Assembly: GCA_043803805.1 (NCBI GenBank)
Contig: JAZDJP010000040.1
Span: forward strand, 1-23,350
DNA from: Planctomycetota bacterium
Lineage (GTDB): Bacteria > Planctomycetota > JAZDJP01
Length of the DNA: 23,350 nt
Reading direction: 5' to 3'
The notes under the pieces are model-generated. The model was not told where the DNA came from and did not search any database. It saw nothing but the letters and a program-made list of their open reading frames with translations. Made by a program: the position numbers and the translations under genes. Positions 4,796-12,880 of this stretch are shown one piece after another (position 1 is the first letter of the stretch; the number at the start of each line of letters is the position of its first letter).

Positions 4796-4838
4796 AGGAA
4801 GTCGGCGAGTCCGCGAGTCGCCGAGTCGGAGAGTCGGC
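4796..4838. repeat. Tandem 8-bp NNNGAGTC array: GAGTC at 4807,4815,4823,4831 plus degenerate AAGTC at 4799, the opposite orientation to the 182-253 array
   Basis: Read directly from the sequence; followed by CTGAACT...TTTTCTGCGAG, a motif shared with the element at 8015-8049. Confidence 0.85.
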
Positions 4839-5640: not shown

Positions 5641-5669
5641 GCAGGGGCGGGTTTGAAACCCGCCCCTAC
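5641..5669. repeat. 29-nt near-perfect palindrome GCAGGGGCGGGTTTGAAACCCGCCCCTAC with a 14-bp GC-rich stem and one mismatch in the left arm; REP-like element or terminator
   Basis: Read directly from the sequence; overlaps the stop codon (5666-5668) of the ankyrin gene; belongs to the same family as 6874-6901 and 11702-11730. Confidence 0.8.
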
Positions 5670-6832
5670 TTCTCCAACATCCCGACAATCGCCGGATTCT
5701 TCATTTCCTTCGCCAGCTTCACCGCCGTCCTTCCCTGCATATCGCACAATTTTTTATCGGCTCCGTTTTTCAAAAGAAGTGCGACCATATCCCGGTTCCC
5801 CTCCCGCACGGCGATATGCAACGGCGTATCACCAGCGGAGTCCTTGAAACCAACCTCCTCTACTACTTCGTTGACACTCCGTTCGGCAATATCCAACCAC
5901 CCATGCCGAACCGCCTCGTGTAAAACCGTGGTTTTGCCGGATGGCGCCTTAATTTTCGGATGGTGGTTCAATAACACGTCCACGATGCGCCGATTCCCTT
6001 GAACGGACGCCATCAGGAGCGGCGTGAGTCCATTCCGGGAGGTCGCATTCACATCCACATTCTGTGATAACAGGTACTGGACGGAATCCAAATCCTCCAT
6101 GACAATCGCCACGTGCAAGGGGCGATATCCCTCCTCCCCCAAGGCCTCCGGGGATTTTTTCATGAAGTCCTTGCGATTCTCCATCCCAAGCGCCAGGGCG
6201 ACATGAACATCCGGACGCGCCCCGCGACTGACCAGAAATTCCAATATGGACTTGAGAGACTCCGCCTCCGTCAATCGTTCCTGTAACCATCGGGGAAGAT
6301 TCTCCCGTCCGACCTTCATCTCATCCATGATCTTCGGCATCACCCTGACAAAGCACGTCGAAGCTGCGTAATGAACTGCCGCGCTATTCGCCAGAGATAT
6401 GCCATGTCTGTCCATCTCATTAACATCCGCCCCGTGCCGGATCATCAACTCCACCATTTTGCGCGTGCCGGAAAGGACAGCACTGCGCATGGCCGAACCA
6501 AACGACTTGTCCCGCAAATCCGCCCCTTGGGAAATCAGCAACTCCGCGACTTCAGCATTGTCAGCGAGCATCGCCCAAAAAAGCAACGGGAACCCGTTTT
6601 CATCCCGTTCATTGATGAGGTCCGGATTATTTCGAATCAACTCCTTCAATCGAAGTATGTCATTCTTCTTCACAGCCTCCGCCATCTTCTGCACCGTCAC
6701 CATCCGGTCCATTTTCCGAATATCGTCCTGTTTTTTCCAATGTTGATACATCCAACAAACGGCGCATATCCCCATCAGCACCAGCAACAGGCACAACCGA
6801 AGCCGACGATAAAATTCAACGGTCGTAATCAT
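5666..6832 (-). CDS. Ankyrin-repeat protein with an N-terminal membrane anchor
   Basis: Multiple ANK repeats (e.g. GYRPLHVAIVMEDLDSVQYLLSQNVDVNATSRNGLTPLLMASVQGNRRIVDVLL and DSAGDTPLHIAVREGNRDMVALLLKNGADKK); N-terminal hydrophobic helix LRLCLLLVLMGICAVCWMY; GC content about 50%, against about 65% in neighbouring genes. Confidence 0.85.
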   Translation of the reverse strand: MITTVEFYRRLRLCLLLVLMGICAVCWMYQHWKKQDDIRKMDRMVTVQKMAEAVKKNDILRLKELIRNNPDLINERDENGFPLLFWAMLADNAEVAELLISQGADLRDKSFGSAMRSAVLSGTRKMVELMIRHGADVNEMDRHGISLANSAAVHYAASTCFVRVMPKIMDEMKVGRENLPRWLQERLTEAESLKSILEFLVSRGARPDVHVALALGMENRKDFMKKSPEALGEEGYRPLHVAIVMEDLDSVQYLLSQNVDVNATSRNGLTPLLMASVQGNRRIVDVLLNHHPKIKAPSGKTTVLHEAVRHGWLDIAERSVNEVVEEVGFKDSAGDTPLHIAVREGNRDMVALLLKNGADKKLCDMQGRTAVKLAKEMKNPAIVGMLEK

Positions 6833-6873
6833 GCTCTTCCCCAGGCGAATTCATTTCCTTCCGCAATCCACAT

Positions 6874-6901
6874 GTAGGGGCACGTTGCAACGTGCCCCTA
6901 C
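6874..6901. repeat. 28-nt perfect palindrome GTAGGGGCACGTTGCAACGTGCCCCTAC
   Basis: Exact self-reverse-complement read directly from the sequence. It lies between the ThyA-like stop (6922) and the ankyrin start (6832) and shares GTAGGGGC/GCCCCTAC termini with the other two palindromes. Confidence 0.8.
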
Positions 6902-6921
6902 GAATCCGGATGATTTCCGAA

Positions 6922-7905
6922 TCACGCCGTCAACCGCCCCGTTTCAATCTCCCGGATGAGATTTTCAAGAAGGGCGATTTTGTCGGGGGGGAAGCGCCAC
7001 TGGCGGCGGTTCTCGTCGGAGAGAAGCCCCTTGAGTTGCGGAATCACAAGCATCTCGGCGGCATCCTCGCTCCGGAGCGCCCGCGCCACGTAGGATTCCT
7101 CGTCGCACGTCTCGAAGAAACTCTTGATGCCTTTTGCGGGATCGCCCCCCACCCGGGCGAAGTCCTGACCGTAGATGTGAAGGCTGAAAACGTGGTCGGA
7201 GTAGCTCCCCACCTTCACCGGCCGATTCGCTTTCGCGGCGATGTCCTTCGCGATCATCTGCTGGAGAAACGTGATTCCAATTAAATTATCCGGCCAGGCC
7301 TTGTAGAGGTCGCGGCTGCGCCAGTGGGTGCTTAAATTCAGCACGAGATTCCCGTCGGCGTCCTCCGGACAGCGGAATTGCATCTCCCGCAGGCACGGGA
7401 CGTCCTCCTTCAGGAACGGATCGAGCCAGGGCGCCGGGGTGGAGGCGACCGCCCGGCGGGTGTGCGGGGTCTTCGCGACGCGCTCGATGGCGAGCGCCAC
7501 CTGGTCCACCGTCCCGCCATCCGGCCCCGGGTGGGCGAAAAGCCTCTGGTGGTACGTGTAGGGCCACTCCGTCGCGGCGAGTTCCCCGTGGATGGAGGCC
7601 TTGAGTTTTTCCACCGGCACCACGAGATGGTCCTTCACTCCGAGAAACTCGGCGATGTAGGTCCCGATTTCGCAGAAGGACACCGCCGGGTAGCGCGGCT
7701 GGGCGAAGGGATCCAGAATTTCCACGAGGACGCGGGCGTCGCGGCTGGGCGGGTCCATGAACGACCCGTCCGGATTCTTCCGGTCGTACTCCGTCCGCAT
7801 GGCCAATCCGTTCTCCCACACCGCCTTCATGGCGCGGTAGTGGGCGCGGGGAATGGACTCGGCGACGACGTGAAGAGTGGGCAGGCGGCCGGGGTTCGTG
7901 GACAT
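6922..7905 (-). CDS. Divergent thymidylate synthase (ThyA) family protein; a thymidylate synthase or pyrimidine-nucleotide C5 hydroxymethylase-like enzyme
   Basis: Aligns by eye to ThyA core motifs: YTYHQRLF (~YGxQWR), DQVALAIERVAKTPHTRRAVASTPAPW (~DQ...DPxSRRxIxSAWN), PCLREMQFRC (~PCHxxFQFYV, catalytic Cys), LSTHWRSRDLYKAWPDNLIGITFL (~LSCQLYQRSxDxxLGxPFNIASYALL), DHVFSLHIY (~GDxHxY). SD GGGAGGA lies 6 nt upstream of the ATG at 7905. The longer ORF extension to 8058 is a translation of the GAGTC repeat and was discarded. Confidence 0.75.
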   Translation of the reverse strand: MSTNPGRLPTLHVVAESIPRAHYRAMKAVWENGLAMRTEYDRKNPDGSFMDPPSRDARVLVEILDPFAQPRYPAVSFCEIGTYIAEFLGVKDHLVVPVEKLKASIHGELAATEWPYTYHQRLFAHPGPDGGTVDQVALAIERVAKTPHTRRAVASTPAPWLDPFLKEDVPCLREMQFRCPEDADGNLVLNLSTHWRSRDLYKAWPDNLIGITFLQQMIAKDIAAKANRPVKVGSYSDHVFSLHIYGQDFARVGGDPAKGIKSFFETCDEESYVARALRSEDAAEMLVIPQLKGLLSDENRRQWRFPPDKIALLENLIREIETGRLTA

Positions 7906-7953
7906 GCGGATTCCTCCCGTAATAAATCGAGGATGTTCGTGATGCCGCCCCAT

Positions 7954-8095
7954 GAGTCTGGAGAGTCCGCGAGTCGGCGAGTCAGGGAGTCTACCCCCCT
8001 CCCCCCTGAACTTTCCACCTCTCTGACTCCGTCGGTTTTTCTGCGAGTCACAGGCCACAGGTCCGGGACTCGGTGACTCGAAGACTCACCGACTA
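7954..8095. repeat. Inverted pair of 8-bp-unit arrays: GAGTC x5 (7954,7963,7971,7979,7987) and GACTC x3 plus a degenerate unit (8067,8075,8083,8091), separated by about 75 bp that contains a CCCCCCTCCCCCCTGAACT...TTTTCTGCGAGTC motif
   Basis: Read directly from the sequence. It sits between the stop of the methyltransferase-PDZ gene (8100) and the ThyA-like start (7905), so it occupies the ThyA-like promoter region. Confidence 0.85.
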
Positions 8096-8099
8096 CTTC

Positions 8100-9131
8100 T
8101 TACCAAAGCGTCACCTCGATTTTCACCTTCCGTTTTCCGCGCACCATCACGAGGCGCAGTTTCTTCTCCTCGCCGACGGATTTTCGCAAGCGATGGATGT
8201 CGAGTTCCCCGACGGGACAATCGCTCACCGCGGCCAGGCGGTCCTTCGCCTTGACGCCGGCCTTCTCGGCGGGCGTGCCCGGAAGCACCTCCCCCACCGG
8301 CCAGGCGTCGCCCGTGCGCGTGATGTTCAGTCCGATCCCCAAAAGGGCCACCCCCAGACGCATGACATCGCAGGCCGCGTTCACCTCCACCCAGATGCCC
8401 TTCCCGGCCGGGACGGCCGTGATGACGGCCAGAGCCCCCGGCTCGCCGCGGTCCGAGTGATACGCGTATTCAAACGAGGCGATCCGGAAATCCGCCGTGT
8501 GGAGCGCACCCAGCCACTCCCGCGTCGCGGTCGAATCCTTCAGGGACGCGGCCGAAACGAGGATGCCGTCCTCCGCGAGCGCGCCCCGGACCCGCCGGAA
8601 CGCCTCCGCCCGCTCCCGGACGCATTCCACCGCGCGGGTGTCCACCGCCGCGTCGAAGGGCCCCCTGGGAAGCGCCTTCGTGAAATCCCCCGTCACGAAC
8701 TCGATATTTTTAATCTTGAGCGCCCCGGCCATCCGCCGCGCCTCGGCGACGGCGTTCCGGGCGAAATCCATCCCCGTGACGCGGGCCTTCTTGTTTCGCG
8801 CGGCGTACCACGTCGCGAGGTATCCGGTGGAACTCCCGAGGTCGAGGATGCGTTTCCTCTCACCGATCGCCTCCGCCGCCGCTTCCCCGGCCGCGCGGAC
8901 GGCGTCCGTGTGCATGGAGAGCACCACGGGCGCTATTTTCGGGTCGGCGGTGAAATTGGAAAACCCCTGCCAGTCCGCGAGATTGGATCCCTCGCGCTCG
9001 AGAGGCTGGAGAAGGGTCTGCACCTCGCGGGCGACCCGGGGGCCGAGTTCCTTCGCGGCCCAGTAGAAATAATCCACCGAGGTGAACCGCCGGAGGCCGA
9101 AGCGGACGAGATGCTTCTCCAGGGACGTCAT
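8100..9131 (-). CDS. Class I SAM-dependent methyltransferase fused to a C-terminal PDZ domain
   Basis: Methyltransferase motifs I (ILDLGSSTGYLATWYA), II (VTGMDFARNA) and III (IEFVTGDF) are present. The C-terminal 90 aa match the PDZ pattern (GIGLNITRTGDAWPVGEVLPGTPAEKAGVKAKDRLAAV...LRLVMVRGKRKVKIEV). Confidence 0.8.
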   Translation of the reverse strand: MTSLEKHLVRFGLRRFTSVDYFYWAAKELGPRVAREVQTLLQPLEREGSNLADWQGFSNFTADPKIAPVVLSMHTDAVRAAGEAAAEAIGERKRILDLGSSTGYLATWYAARNKKARVTGMDFARNAVAEARRMAGALKIKNIEFVTGDFTKALPRGPFDAAVDTRAVECVRERAEAFRRVRGALAEDGILVSAASLKDSTATREWLGALHTADFRIASFEYAYHSDRGEPGALAVITAVPAGKGIWVEVNAACDVMRLGVALLGIGLNITRTGDAWPVGEVLPGTPAEKAGVKAKDRLAAVSDCPVGELDIHRLRKSVGEEKKLRLVMVRGKRKVKIEVTLW

Positions 9132-9325: not shown

Positions 9326-12300
9326 CTAGTCCGTGCGCTCGACCTTCGCGGTGGCCGTCCTTACCAGCGCCGCCTTGCCGGAACCGTCCCAGAACCGCAG
9401 CGCGGCAACCACCTCGGCGCCCACCTTCAGGTACGGGCCATCGCGCGTGACGAGCTCGACAACGAGTTTTTTACCGGCATGGACGGTGATGGTATCCCGG
9501 GCCTTGGGGTCCTCTCCCGGAAAGAACTTGCCATTGTTTCCCACGGTCGCGACGTGCATGTTCCAGGAGAGATTGACGTCCTTCTTGCCGGCGGAGTTGT
9601 CCAACTCCACGGCCACCTTGGCGTGGAGCGGCGAGCCGCCGTCGGGGCCGGGATTGTCCACGACGGGCATCCAGTCGCGCCAGAAGTAGACGTCCCCGGT
9701 CTTAATCTTGCAGTCGCCAACGGCCTCCCCGCGCTGGAGCACCACCTCGGCCCTGCCCGGCTCGACGATCTCGATTTCCACGGGGCCGGTGGTGACCTTG
9801 CCGTTCCAGAATGCGGTCCCCGCTTGCGGAACGTCGCAAGCCGCGGTCATGACGTACTTGCCGGGCGGCAGGGACTTCGACAAGATGTTTTTCCCCTCCT
9901 CGCCGACGTTCCAGAACTCACACATCAACAACGCCTGCGCTTTTTCACCGGCCTGTAAATTCACATCGGGGCGGAGAGGCATCGGCTTCGGCGGCGGGTG
10001 AATGCTCGCCGTGTACGTTTTCTTGCTTTCTTGCGCGACAAGACGCACTTTCCAACTCCATGTGTCAAGCACCCAACCCGGCAGTTTTATGGGCTGATTT
10101 CCCGCGTTCATGAGACAAGCATCCATCACAACCGGCTTCCCGGCCTCGAACTTCGCCTGCTTGGCCGACAGCCCCGCTTGGAGGCCGTTCACCGCCGAGC
10201 CCCAGGAAATGTTTTCAGCCTCCTTTCCACCCTTTTCTATCCGAATCGTCCAGACGTTTGAACTGACTTTTCCGCGAATCTGACGGATTCTATATTCGCC
10301 GGGTTTTTCGAATGAAAAAAAAGTTGAAAGAGGGATAACAAGAGTTTGTTCCTGCCCCGACGCCAGGGAGTAGCGAGTGTTGACGATATGGTTGGCGATA
10401 CGGCCCTTCACGGCTTTCCCATCAGGACCGATGACTTCCAACAACGCCGCGTTAAATGCTCCGAGGTAGAGATTTTCCTGAACATCTTCTTGGTCCATTT
10501 GCTCGAAATGGCCGACGTCCTGTATGGCTTCCTTGCCGCCGTTTCTTACGCCAAGTGTGACTTTGATGACCTCGTTCGGTGCGTATTCCGTCTTTTCCGA
10601 CCAGACGCCGCATTGAAGCCCCGCGTTCAGCCCGACCGACGCCTGGCCCCAGGAGATGTTGTCCTTCGGCACCGTCGATTTCGCGCCGCTTTTATCCCTG
10701 ACCTCGATCCTGATTGAACCGGTCTCCACCGCACCCGTCCATGCGGGAACGAGGTTCTGGGGCACGACCCTGACGTGTTTTCGCGTGTCGCCTCCCCATT
10801 GATATTTCGCTTTGACAAGGTACTCTCCTGCCGGCAAGGCATCGACATCAATCTTGGCGCCCGCAGGGGAGTTCCCGATTTTCCAGAATCCGCCGACCTC
10901 GCCAAAAACGATGGTCTCGATTTTCCGATCCTTCTTTTCGAATTCGCCAAGAGAAATATCTTCCCCTCCCGCCGACTTCGTCCAGTAGTAGATTTCTTTC
11001 CTTTCCCCGGATTCAAACGAGAGCGCGAACCGGTCCGGATGGTCCCAAGCATCCAGCCGGAGCGCTTTTCCCCCCGTATTTTCAAAATGAATAGCGAAAT
11101 TCATGGATTCGCCGGCCCTGAATACGTTTTGTCCTGCGGTTGCGATCCCCGCCTGCAGGCCGTTGACGGGCTGGCCCCAAGAAATGTTTTCAGCCTCCTT
11201 TCCACCCTTGGTCTGAATTTCAACCGCTGGTGAGCCGGCCTCGCCTATCCAGACTCCTTCCTTGCGGAGTTTTTCCAAGTACGCAACCGCCTCCGCCTTA
11301 TTGGCCTCGGTGTTCTCAACAAGGGAGTCCAGCGTCAGGGCGTACCGGAATCGCACCGCGCGGGCCCTTGCCTCCGGCGCGGCGCCGAAGAATTCCTTGA
11401 GAGAGCCCGACGAAAGCGCCGCGGTTTCCCCCGGCGCGATGATTTTGCGCTTGCCGTCGTAGATGCCGGCGTCGAGCACCGCGAGTTCTCCAGTTTTGTA
11501 GCTGAGCCCCTGACGTACGACCGCCCCCTTCTCGTCCACGAGTTCCCAGCCGGAGGAACCCCGATAGGTGCAGAGCGTCACGGGTTTGTCACCCTCGTTT
11601 CTGACAAATGCCCCGGCGCGCAATCCGTCTCGGTCTTTCGTCAACCGGACGCCAACAGACAGGCCGTTGACCGGCTGGCCCCAGGAAATGCCGTCGTTTA
11701 CGGGTGAATCCGTAGGGGCGGGTTTCAAACCCGCCCCTACATTGTCGGTTTTTTTCGTGACGTCCTCGCCCGCCCTGCACCCCGCCACCACCACCGCCAT
11801 TGCGAGAAACACCATTCCTGTGAATCCCAGCATCCAGGTATTCATCCGCGTCACAAGACGCCTCCTTTCGTCAAGAATTCCTTTCACACGCTCCTCAAGA
11901 TTCCACCGGGGATGCACGAGGCCCACCGCCGCCGGTGTGCGGTGGAAGATGCTCGTCTTCTCCGCGAGATCCAAGAGCATTTTGGCGTAACCCGGCGCGT
12001 TCCCCCGCCGCAATACATAATTGTCGCACACCTCCTCGCGGGCGCGGGCGAGTTCGCCGTTTGCCTTCCAGACAAACGGATGCCACCAGAACACGACTTC
12101 CGCGATGCGCTGAAGAAGTCCCACCAGATGATCCCGCTGAAGAACGTGGGCGCATTCGTGGACGAGAATATCGCGAAGTTCCACCGGACCGAGAAGTCCC
12201 GCCACCGGCGTCGGAAGCAAAATCATCGGCCGCGTGATGCCGAAACAGATCGGCCCCGTGATCTGCCCCGACATGCCGATCGGAGGAAGCGCGCGGACGC

Positions 12301-12880
12301 CGAGCGCATTTTTCACATCCGCCAGGACGGGCCCCATCTCGTCGTCATCCAGCGGGATGGCGCTTGTCCGGAGCGCCGTCTGGACTCCAAAACCATGAAT
12401 CAGACGAACCAGCATGACAAGAACTCCCCCCGCCCAGACGAGAAAAACGCCGCACACCGCGGCCCGAATCCGGTCCGCTCGGGAAAGCGGCGGCGACGCG
12501 GGTTTCACGGGCGTCGCCGGCGCGGTCTCCGCGCGGACGACCGGCGCCGGATGCGGGGAGACCGGGATGACGGGTTCCGAAACGGTTTGGATCGACGTCG
12601 CCGGTGCGGCCGCCGCCGGTGGGGAAACAGGTTTCTCCCTCAAGAAAGGAAGAGTAAACGTCGTGATCCCCGCCGCCTCCGCCACCACCGACACCAGCGG
12701 CGCGAGAAGCACCACCGCCAGGGCCGACAGCCACAATCCGTAACGGACGGCCGCCCCCGCCCGGCGGAAAATCCGGGAAAGCATCCAGGCCAGAGCCACC
12801 ACCACCGTGACCTGGATCAACGCATTCATCGCGGCGAGCGCCGCGGCGTCACCAAGATAAAATCGGAGAAGCGTCCTCAT
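9326..12880 (-). CDS. blaR1: BlaR1/MecR1-family M56 peptidase signal transducer (anti-repressor) with a very large C-terminal extracytoplasmic sensor built from about four tandem repeats, each of about 190 aa, carrying an ISWGQPVNGL motif
   Basis: N-terminal TM helices and the zinc-metalloprotease motif VHECAHVLQRDH characteristic of BlaR1; a further TM at about aa 350; the repeats contain DGISWGQPVNGL, ENISWGQPVNGLQAG, DNISWGQASVGLNAG and ENISWGSAVNGLQAG. The gene overlaps the upstream blaI-family gene by 4 nt (ATGA). Confidence 0.85.
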   Translation of the reverse strand: MRTLLRFYLGDAAALAAMNALIQVTVVVALAWMLSRIFRRAGAAVRYGLWLSALAVVLLAPLVSVVAEAAGITTFTLPFLREKPVSPPAAAAPATSIQTVSEPVIPVSPHPAPVVRAETAPATPVKPASPPLSRADRIRAAVCGVFLVWAGGVLVMLVRLIHGFGVQTALRTSAIPLDDDEMGPVLADVKNALGVRALPPIGMSGQITGPICFGITRPMILLPTPVAGLLGPVELRDILVHECAHVLQRDHLVGLLQRIAEVVFWWHPFVWKANGELARAREEVCDNYVLRRGNAPGYAKMLLDLAEKTSIFHRTPAAVGLVHPRWNLEERVKGILDERRRLVTRMNTWMLGFTGMVFLAMAVVVAGCRAGEDVTKKTDNVGAGLKPAPTDSPVNDGISWGQPVNGLSVGVRLTKDRDGLRAGAFVRNEGDKPVTLCTYRGSSGWELVDEKGAVVRQGLSYKTGELAVLDAGIYDGKRKIIAPGETAALSSGSLKEFFGAAPEARARAVRFRYALTLDSLVENTEANKAEAVAYLEKLRKEGVWIGEAGSPAVEIQTKGGKEAENISWGQPVNGLQAGIATAGQNVFRAGESMNFAIHFENTGGKALRLDAWDHPDRFALSFESGERKEIYYWTKSAGGEDISLGEFEKKDRKIETIVFGEVGGFWKIGNSPAGAKIDVDALPAGEYLVKAKYQWGGDTRKHVRVVPQNLVPAWTGAVETGSIRIEVRDKSGAKSTVPKDNISWGQASVGLNAGLQCGVWSEKTEYAPNEVIKVTLGVRNGGKEAIQDVGHFEQMDQEDVQENLYLGAFNAALLEVIGPDGKAVKGRIANHIVNTRYSLASGQEQTLVIPLSTFFSFEKPGEYRIRQIRGKVSSNVWTIRIEKGGKEAENISWGSAVNGLQAGLSAKQAKFEAGKPVVMDACLMNAGNQPIKLPGWVLDTWSWKVRLVAQESKKTYTASIHPPPKPMPLRPDVNLQAGEKAQALLMCEFWNVGEEGKNILSKSLPPGKYVMTAACDVPQAGTAFWNGKVTTGPVEIEIVEPGRAEVVLQRGEAVGDCKIKTGDVYFWRDWMPVVDNPGPDGGSPLHAKVAVELDNSAGKKDVNLSWNMHVATVGNNGKFFPGEDPKARDTITVHAGKKLVVELVTRDGPYLKVGAEVVAALRFWDGSGKAALVRTATAKVERTD
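10183..10234. repeat. Intragenic DNA repeat, copy 1 (52 nt; the last 34 nt are nearly identical to 11175-11208)
   Basis: GGCCGTTCACCGCCGAGCCCCAGGAAATGTTTTCAGCCTCCTTTCCACCCTT matches 11157-11208 with about 6 mismatches, and the 3-prime 34 nt differ at a single position. It encodes the KGGKEAENISWGQ segment of a sensor repeat. Confidence 0.7.
11157..11208. repeat. Intragenic DNA repeat, copy 2 (paired with 10183-10234)
   Basis: See copy 1. Weaker, more diverged copies occur near 10621-10660 and 11671-11700. Confidence 0.7.
11702..11730. repeat. 29-nt perfect palindrome GTAGGGGCGGGTTTCAAACCCGCCCCTAC located in frame inside the blaR1-like ORF, where it encodes the GAGLKPAPT linker segment
   Basis: Exact self-reverse-complement with a 14-bp stem; same family as 5641-5669 (opposite loop orientation) and 6874-6901. 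Confidence 0.8.

Follow-up and report, generated by a model that had tools for sequence, protein, structure and literature searches.

The window studied here is a stretch of 23,350 nucleotides, positions 1 to 23,350 of contig JAZDJP010000040.1 (assembly GCA_043803805.1) from a Planctomycetota bacterium, and it carries on its reverse strand a gene for a 327-residue protein of the thymidylate synthase (ThyA) superfamily. The gene is a member of a large, strongly conserved and uncharacterised branch of the ThyA family. The gene order in the window is a possible extracytoplasmic function sigma factor, a flotillin, an ankyrin-repeat protein, the ThyA homologue, a methyltransferase-PDZ protein, a BlaR1/M56 protein and glycoside hydrolases, and no gene beside the ThyA homologue relates to nucleotide or DNA metabolism. 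The protein is identical to an NCBI entry from a metagenome-assembled genome (MAG), our P0001, which is named 'thymidylate synthase [Planctomycetota bacterium]'. The gene and its parts are as follows.

6922..7905, reverse strand: coding sequence of the 327-residue ThyA-superfamily protein; stop codon 6922-6924, ATG 7905-7903 (from the list of open reading frames, ORFs, and the sequence)
7913..7918, reverse strand: Shine-Dalgarno-like motif GGGAGG, 7 nt 5' of the ATG at 7905 (read from the sequence)
7561..7905, reverse strand: N-terminal half, residues 1-115, family-specific, with the invariant Arg37 (in RTEYDR) and Glu86; unalignable with canonical ThyA by sequence
7153..7560, reverse strand: ThyA catalytic core, residues 116-251, with Tyr118, Arg150/151, Asp168, Cys171, Arg196, Ser197, Asp199, Asn207, His243 and Tyr245 (from PF00303, phmmer/hmmsearch of PDB sequences against E. 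coli ThyA, hhalign and invariance in 129 members)
7393..7395, reverse strand: codon of the catalytic nucleophile Cys171, equivalent to E. coli Cys146 (from sequence and alignments)
6925..7152, reverse strand: C-terminal helical subdomain, residues 252-327, family-wide (from the AlphaFold2 model and homologue coverage)

The ATG start at 7905 fits the N-termini of the homologues. A longer ORF, started by a GTG and reaching up to 8058, was rejected, as it crosses a repeat array and the homologue N-termini disagree with it.

A profile match, the ThyA fold and the Pro-Cys, Arg-Arg and Arg-Ser pairs all place the protein in the superfamily of ThyA and deoxycytidine monophosphate (dCMP) hydroxymethylases. 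The Pfam profile PF00303 matches with 39.1 bits (cut-off 24.3, E = 6e-10), only over residues 116-244 and spanning profile positions 94-215 of 266. Among the curated models TIGR03283, the methanogen-type thymidylate synthase, scores highest, with 98.7 bits over residues 15-251, and the canonical ThyA models give 23-31 bits overall against cut-offs above 100. A sequence-only reading of the gene had proposed that the ThyA catalytic framework is retained, and every motif that it quoted was found: PCLREMQF (Cys171), HTRRAVAS (Arg150/151), WRSRD (Arg196, Ser197 and Asp199), WPDNLIG (Asn207) and SLHIY (His243 and Tyr245). The C-terminal string that it gave was found as well. Profile and fold comparison agree with that proposal, and the motif alignment survives the PF00303 search. 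Searches with phmmer and hmmsearch against PDB sequences, together with hhalign, equate Tyr118 with Tyr94 of E. coli ThyA, Arg150/151 with Arg126/127, Cys171 with Cys146, Arg196/Ser197 with Arg166/Ser167, Asp199 with Asp169, His243 with His207 and Tyr245 with Tyr209. They also align Asn207 with Asn177, a placement which the sequence-only reading had regarded as shaky. That the N-terminal half is highly divergent, as the same reading stated, is seen in the hhalign comparison with E. coli ThyA, where residues 117-251 are the only alignable stretch and the N-terminal 116 residues cannot be aligned. The equivalences of Arg37 and Glu86 to Arg21 and Glu58 were made by eye and from the fold, without alignment, and Glu86 is the likely counterpart of E. 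coli Glu58. A literature search gave no paper on this bacterial subfamily and none pairing MJ0757 with thymidylate synthase.

Conservation was counted in 129 full-length family members. Arg37, Glu86, Tyr116, Tyr118, Arg121, Arg150, Arg151, Pro170, Cys171, Arg196, Ser197, Asn207, His243 and Tyr245 are invariant in all of them, a sign that purifying selection acts strongly on the active site. Asp168 is found in 128 of the 129, as is Asp199. An Asn at the position of E. coli Asn177 goes with a uracil rather than a cytosine substrate (PMC13326640), and the sequence of the family at Asn207 thus indicates a predicted specificity for uracil. Cytidine monophosphate (CMP) or dCMP as the substrate, as for the T4 dCMP hydroxymethylase and MilA, could be ruled out by the invariance of Asn207. 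A flavin-dependent 5-hydroxy-dCMP synthase was also considered; these enzymes have the signature D169N with N177D (PMC13326640), and the candidate was ruled out since the query keeps Asp199 and Asn207. The ThyA-type Arg pair, Ser197, His243 and Tyr245 suggest that the substrate would be a 2'-deoxynucleotide.

An AlphaFold2 model was built from a family alignment of 25 sequences, with a mean predicted local distance difference test score (pLDDT) of 90 and a predicted template modelling score of 0.88. In the structure comparison the model scored 19.4 with the CMP hydroxymethylase MilA (5jnh), 19.2 with 9iqc, a flavin monooxygenase of ThyA fold that acts on dCMP, 16.7-17.7 with ThyA chains and 15.2 with the T4 dCMP hydroxymethylase, and Foldseek was concordant. 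A fold search of BFVD returned only generic viral thymidylate synthase and dCMP hydroxymethylase matches. The C-terminal region is modelled as helices at residues 246-253, 263-266, 269-274, 279-294, 297-303 and 307-322, with pLDDT means over ten residues of 87-97, and this region alone had no significant structural neighbour.

The tail that follows the HxY motif is 82 residues long in all 120 close homologues, with a median of 59 in the wider radiation. Elsewhere it is shorter, with a median of 21 in 114 methanogen-type sequences from Bathyarchaeia and 55 residues in E. coli ThyA. The majority residue has a mean frequency of 0.66 in the C-terminus as compared to 0.81 in the core, and the last few residues are fixed in length. 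The sequence-only reading described an extension of about 80 residues; the 82 residues are there and are distinctive, but comparison with tails of about 21 and 55 residues implies that the C-terminus is replaced and enlarged and not simply added on. It is a family-wide helical region and not an 80-residue addition specific to this gene.

The search of 5.8 billion protein clusters gave 2,106 relatives at E <= 1e-3. The best 120 of these are about 324-355 residues long, with 65-73% identity and 97-100% query coverage, and the named ones among them come from MAGs of Planctomycetota, Hydrogenedentota, Latescibacterota and Phycisphaerales. When representatives at 50% identity were searched exhaustively, 796 clusters were found at E <= 1e-3 and 40 at E <= 1e-30. 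The wider set forms a diverse TIGR03283-like radiation, in which every scanned member falls under the TIGR03283 cut-off. One relative of this radiation, the metagenomic P0159 (694 residues), has an intein with an insert of homing-endonuclease size inside its ThyA domain; inteins typically sit in genes of replication and nucleotide metabolism. When one genome per GTDB species was scanned, a relative turned up in at least 581 species genomes, all of them MAGs. Most carriers are Hydrogenedentota, the others being Planctomycetota, Latescibacterota, Patescibacteria (Buchananbacteria) and DPANN archaea (Woese-, Pace- and Nanoarchaeota). The gene is single-copy, lies in varied housekeeping neighbourhoods and is kept even in very small genomes.

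It was also possible to observe the family outside cellular genomes. Three phage-like contigs of 47-90 kb from IMG/VR, L086, L087 and L088, encode full-length members with 48-57% identity, which implies that the subfamily is also virus-borne. These contigs carry small ORFs, YopX and an MT-A70 methyltransferase as well, and on L086 a deoxythymidine monophosphate (dTMP) kinase lies 2.3 kb downstream of the family member. Cultured phages had no near relative, the best match being 33% identity over 40% of the query.

To describe the gene context, 85 related loci were taken with up to 10 kb of flank on each side (1.47 Mb), and all ORFs were clustered for recurrent neighbours. In 13 loci from Patescibacteria and DPANN a full-length orthologue (50-61% identity) directly abuts a dTMP kinase, which matches PF02223 and scores 145 and 120 bits with TIGR00041, whose cut-off is 83. 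In most of the 13 the orthologue comes after genes for a ComEB-like dCMP deaminase and a P-loop kinase, and the blocks are set among housekeeping genes, with NusG, L11 and L1 upstream and GatB downstream. The order dCMP deaminase, kinase, orthologue and dTMP kinase matches the path from dCMP over deoxyuridine monophosphate (dUMP) and dTMP to deoxythymidine diphosphate, and as far as gene order and sequence can tell this context points to ordinary synthesis of deoxythymidine triphosphate (dTTP).

Some variation was seen within these operons. The P-loop kinase and the ComEB-like dCMP deaminase are fused in the DPANN locus L076 (8923-9972) and separate in Patescibacteria (L063, 7511-8516, with equivalents in L065, L066, L073 and L075). 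They weakly resemble the anti-phage dCTP deaminase NF041025 (129 bits against 400), yet they lie within a housekeeping dTTP operon. Tandem dTMP kinase paralogues are found just upstream of the ThyA homologue in L063 (8540-9970), L065 (8412-9878), L073 (8563-9972) and L075 (8494-9954), and of the two only the first passes the TIGR00041 cut-off. The L076 locus, from a Woesearchaeota MAG, has in addition a second archaeal-type ThyA paralogue of 214 residues (8183-8827; TIGR03283 138 bits), in which ATPGLV replaces the PC motif and the catalytic Cys is missing. It belongs to the same operon, upstream of the kinase-deaminase fusion, the family member and the dTMP kinase, and it could either serve as a partner subunit or be a pseudo-enzyme. 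When ThyA and FolA of E. coli and ThyX of T. maritima were used as tblastn queries, no thyX, folA or canonical thyA was found in the 1.47 Mb of locus flanks, which are a small part of the genomes; the matches obtained were the family itself and the one Cys-less paralogue.

The surroundings of the gene in the window contain a methyltransferase gene, arrays of the word GAGTC and a palindrome.

8100..9131, reverse strand: class-I S-adenosylmethionine-dependent methyltransferase with a weak C-terminal PDZ match (Pfam Methyltransf_31/25/11/12)
7954..7991, forward strand: GAGTC array of five units with an 8-bp period, 49-86 nt upstream of the ThyA-like start codon
8067..8087, reverse strand: GAGTC array of three units, just downstream of the methyltransferase-PDZ stop codon
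185-245, reverse strand, and 4807-4835, forward strand: further GAGTC arrays, intergenic
6874..6901, no strand assigned: perfect 28-nt palindrome GTAGGGGCACGTTGCAACGTGCCCCTAC, 21 nt past the ThyA-like stop codon, with no T-run behind it

The methyltransferase-PDZ gene and the upstream GAGTC arrays are thus present where the sequence-only reading placed them, with the reservation that the PDZ_6 and PDZ_2 matches are both below cut-off. The four intergenic arrays in 23 kb have 3-8 units each at an 8-bp period and are 83-88% similar to one another, and the word GAGTC itself is no commoner in the window than expected, with 39 occurrences against an expected 47.9. Only two of the 85 related loci have even two units at 8-bp spacing, and the arrays are missing from the other 83. 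When metagenomes were scanned for four-unit arrays, more than 120 mixed contigs with a GC content of 33-74% and varied spacers were obtained, and this heterogeneity rules out the arrays as a coherent element. They are a dispersed, genome-specific repeat without a demonstrable tie to the ThyA family.

The palindrome at 6874-6901 is probably a terminator or a hairpin like the repetitive extragenic palindromes (REP). It has kin at 5641-5669 and 11712-11740, and the three make up a family of near-perfect 28-29-nt palindromes, GTAGGGGC...GCCCCTAC. Two of them lie at or just past the stop codons of the ankyrin and ThyA-like genes and are terminator- or REP-like without a T-run; the one at 11712-11740 is in frame in the BlaR1/M56 ORF, in the linker behind the peptidase domain, where it encodes GAGLKPAPT. 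A scan for promoters and terminators over 6700-8200 gave no signal exceeding the shuffled background. The BlaR1/M56-family protein (9326-12880, reverse strand) has 1184 residues, and its C-terminal two-thirds consist of about four internal repeats, each 450-530 nt long, in which the motif ISWGQPVNGL recurs; no Pfam model matches the repeat part.

We think it probable, with room for doubt, that the gene encodes a housekeeping thymidylate synthase which methylates dUMP and belongs to an uncharacterised subfamily related to archaeal-type ThyA. This role is proposed because of the dCMP deaminase and dTMP kinase context, the invariant active site, the wide single-copy distribution and the retention in small genomes. 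In methanogens, which are without ThyX, dTMP is presumed to be supplied by enzymes of the archaeal-type clade. What the analysis shows directly is the family, the fold, the conservation of residues, the gene context and the distribution; we infer dUMP as the substrate, dTMP as the product and the role of the C-terminus. The subfamily, with its bacterial, Patescibacteria and DPANN members, would be sister to the archaeal 'methanogen-type' ThyA and act from a stand-alone gene. By homology with ThyA, Cys171 would attack C6 of dUMP, while Arg150/151 from the partner subunit, Arg196 and Ser197 would hold the 5'-phosphate. His243 and Tyr245 are predicted to bind the 3'-OH of the deoxyribose, Asn207 to read the uracil face, and Glu86 and Tyr118 to handle the proton transfers. 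A methylene-pterin carrier would then donate a one-carbon unit to C5, where it would be reduced to methyl, giving dTMP for further processing by dTMP kinase. The pterin-binding half appears to be rebuilt relative to canonical ThyA, and it is conceivable that the helical C-terminus, with its tail of fixed length, replaces the canonical C-terminal tail in capping the active site.

Several observations do not sit easily with a housekeeping thymidylate synthase. The 98.7 bits obtained with TIGR03283 miss its equivalog cut-off of 174.55, and the canonical model TIGR03284 is missed as well (24.7 bits, cut-off 108.35). The top structural match is MilA, a hydroxymethylase, and the family has Asp168 at the position of E. 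coli Leu143, three residues before Cys171, and Thr117 at that of Val93. The Hydrogenedentota and Planctomycetota loci, the window included, showed no conserved nucleotide-metabolism context, although their complete lack of conserved synteny is by itself typical for a stand-alone housekeeping gene. Furthermore, the archaeal-type ThyA proteins have yet to yield a purified, characterised enzyme whose cofactor is defined (PMC9931769).

There is a minor but real chance that the protein is not a classical thymidylate synthase, and is instead a cellular dUMP hydroxymethylase or an enzyme forming dTMP with a non-folate carrier or with a separate reductant held by the C-terminal domain. As a hydroxymethylase, which we find unlikely, it would use the same Cys171 chemistry, and water activated by Asp168 would add to the exocyclic methylene to give 5-hydroxymethyl-dUMP for a modified base or metabolite. 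The context of dCMP deaminase and kinases also resembles phage pathways to 5-hydroxymethyldeoxyuridine, and the three phage-like contigs with full-length members also speak for a hydroxymethylase. Asp168 and Thr117 match Asp145 and Ser94 of the T4 dCMP hydroxymethylase, which lie at the Leu143 and Val93 positions and of which Asp145 activates the substrate water (PMC6400193, PMC13326640). The residue at the Leu143 position correlates with a methyl or a hydroxymethyl product, Leu143 itself going with methyl (PMC6400193, PMC13326640), and it is on these grounds that the hydroxymethylase part of the earlier suggestion of a non-housekeeping modification function is kept, while its argument from context is not. 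However, D/E-P-P-C is found in most related clusters, and proteins that pass TIGR03283 have similar residues: ORF59 of Methanobacterium virus PhiF1 (187.1 bits) carries K-E-I-P-C and Y-T-Y, and the Bathyarchaeia protein P0312 (184.8 bits) D-S-P-P-C and Y-T-Y-H. The pair of an acidic and a hydroxyl residue thus characterises the archaeal-type clade as a whole, which means that the product rule for the Leu143 position cannot be transferred to this clade with confidence. Further points speak against a hydroxymethylase: the kinases next to the orthologue exceed the equivalog cut-off for dTMP kinase; hypermodification genes, such as those for a glycosyltransferase, a dTMPase or a dUTPase, do not recur near the family in the 85 loci; and at least 581 cellular species, tiny genomes among them, have the gene in one housekeeping-like copy. 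Carrier contigs reach 2.03 Mb in CAXXYE010000009.1 and 1.08 Mb in CAVVHG010000006.1 and, if they are long-read assemblies as we assume, argue weakly against wholesale replacement of thymine. A ThyA-fold enzyme that handles its cofactor differently, through a carrier other than folate or a separate reductant bound with the aid of the C-terminal helices, would make dTMP without dihydrofolate, and we regard it as rather improbable. The canonical folate-binding half cannot be aligned, Patescibacteria and DPANN are generally without folate biosynthesis, and UniProt/HAMAP reportedly words the cosubstrate of archaeal-type ThyA as unknown, all of which would fit; against it, no motif for nucleotide or flavin binding can be recognised in the C-terminus, which also lacks a significant structural match, and the kept Asp199, equivalent to the pterin-orienting Asp169, fits a pterin cofactor.

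Two further explanations are very improbable. The sequence-only reading tentatively connected the enzyme, the methyltransferase-PDZ protein and the GAGTC arrays, a GANTC-type motif, into a system for nucleotide or DNA base modification. What speaks for it is the physical adjacency, in this window only, and a weak PADLOC match to 'mad2' that is confined to the methyltransferase domain. The context argument fails in the other loci: in none of the 84 does a homologue of the methyltransferase-PDZ, ankyrin or BlaR1-like neighbours lie beside a family member, and the arrays, nearly always missing there, occur in the window at unrelated intergenic sites too. Moreover, a gap of 194 bp separates the two genes, and the methyltransferase translation, inspected by eye and not with a profile, has no DPPY/NPPY-type DNA-methyltransferase motif and no C5-methyltransferase motif. 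PADLOC gave no match for the ThyA homologue, and a role for it in a defence system was rejected for that reason. That the protein is a catalytically inactive or regulatory paralogue has as little to recommend it: the Cys-less paralogue which adjoins a family member at L076 8183-8827 tells us that pseudo-enzymes occur in the clade, but the catalytic residues of the family itself are invariant in all 129 members.

Compared with known systems, the proposed thymidylate synthase stands closest to the methanogen-type ThyA (TIGR03283; MJ0757-like). Both have the patterns PxSxD...EPR, YTYH(Q/E)RL, TRRA, WRSRD...N and SxHIY and an acidic residue at -3 or -4 before PC, and for both the dTMP product is assumed and the cofactor demonstrated for neither. 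The methanogen-type proteins are about 200-240 residues long with about 21 residues after HxY, whereas the query has 327 residues, of which 82 follow HxY in a conserved helical subdomain. Where the model-passing Bathyarchaeia proteins have PTEYGE the query has RTEYDR, and its family is found mainly in Bacteria (Hydrogenedentota, Planctomycetota and Patescibacteria) and DPANN, not in methanogens. In comparison with canonical E. coli ThyA (EC 2.1.1.45), the folate-binding region around Trp80/Trp83 is unrecognisable, and the query has Asp in place of Leu143, Thr in place of Val93, Leu in place of His147 and Trp in place of Gln165. The hydrophobic seal of the canonical active site (Leu143 and Trp80/Trp83) is thus absent from the query, which agrees with ThyA at the Asn177 and Asp169 positions. 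The canonical C-terminus is strand-and-loop, while that of the query is helical.

The hydroxymethylases T4 gp42 and MilA differ from the query in having Asp at the base-specificity position, where the query has Asn. The T4 dCMP hydroxymethylase has almost no C-terminus as compared to the long, conserved one seen here, and both enzymes belong to antibiotic or hypermodification clusters, outside of which all 85 query loci lie. Neighbour clustering over these loci gave dCMP deaminase, kinases and dTMP kinase alone, and these in Patescibacteria and DPANN alone. The Arg pair and the equivalent of Ser167 are ThyA-like in the query, and these positions reportedly set the preference for CMP or dCMP in the MilA study. 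The 5-hydroxy-dCMP synthases PDB 9iqc, RB69 gp48 and DLP3 gp80 combine D169N with N177D, in contrast to Asp199 and Asn207 of the query.

Thymidylate synthesis is essential and a drug target, and it is thought to be covered by two families, ThyA and ThyX. The family described here is found mostly in uncultured phyla and ultra-small symbionts, and it combines a rebuilt cofactor half and a new C-terminal domain with active-site residues like those of hydroxymethylases. Should it be an ordinary thymidylate synthase, its annotation would be fixed and the product rule for the Leu143 position would prove not to be transferable to the archaeal-type clade. If the enzyme were a hydroxymethylase, 5-hydroxymethyluracil nucleotides, and with them modified thymine precursors, would be made by cellular life, in hundreds of uncultured bacterial and DPANN lineages. 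A variant in cofactor use would mean that thymidylate is made by a third kind of mechanism, and it would touch on the question of which cosubstrate the archaeal-type ThyA uses. The bacterial members might be easier to express than the methanogen enzymes, and that question may thereby become testable.

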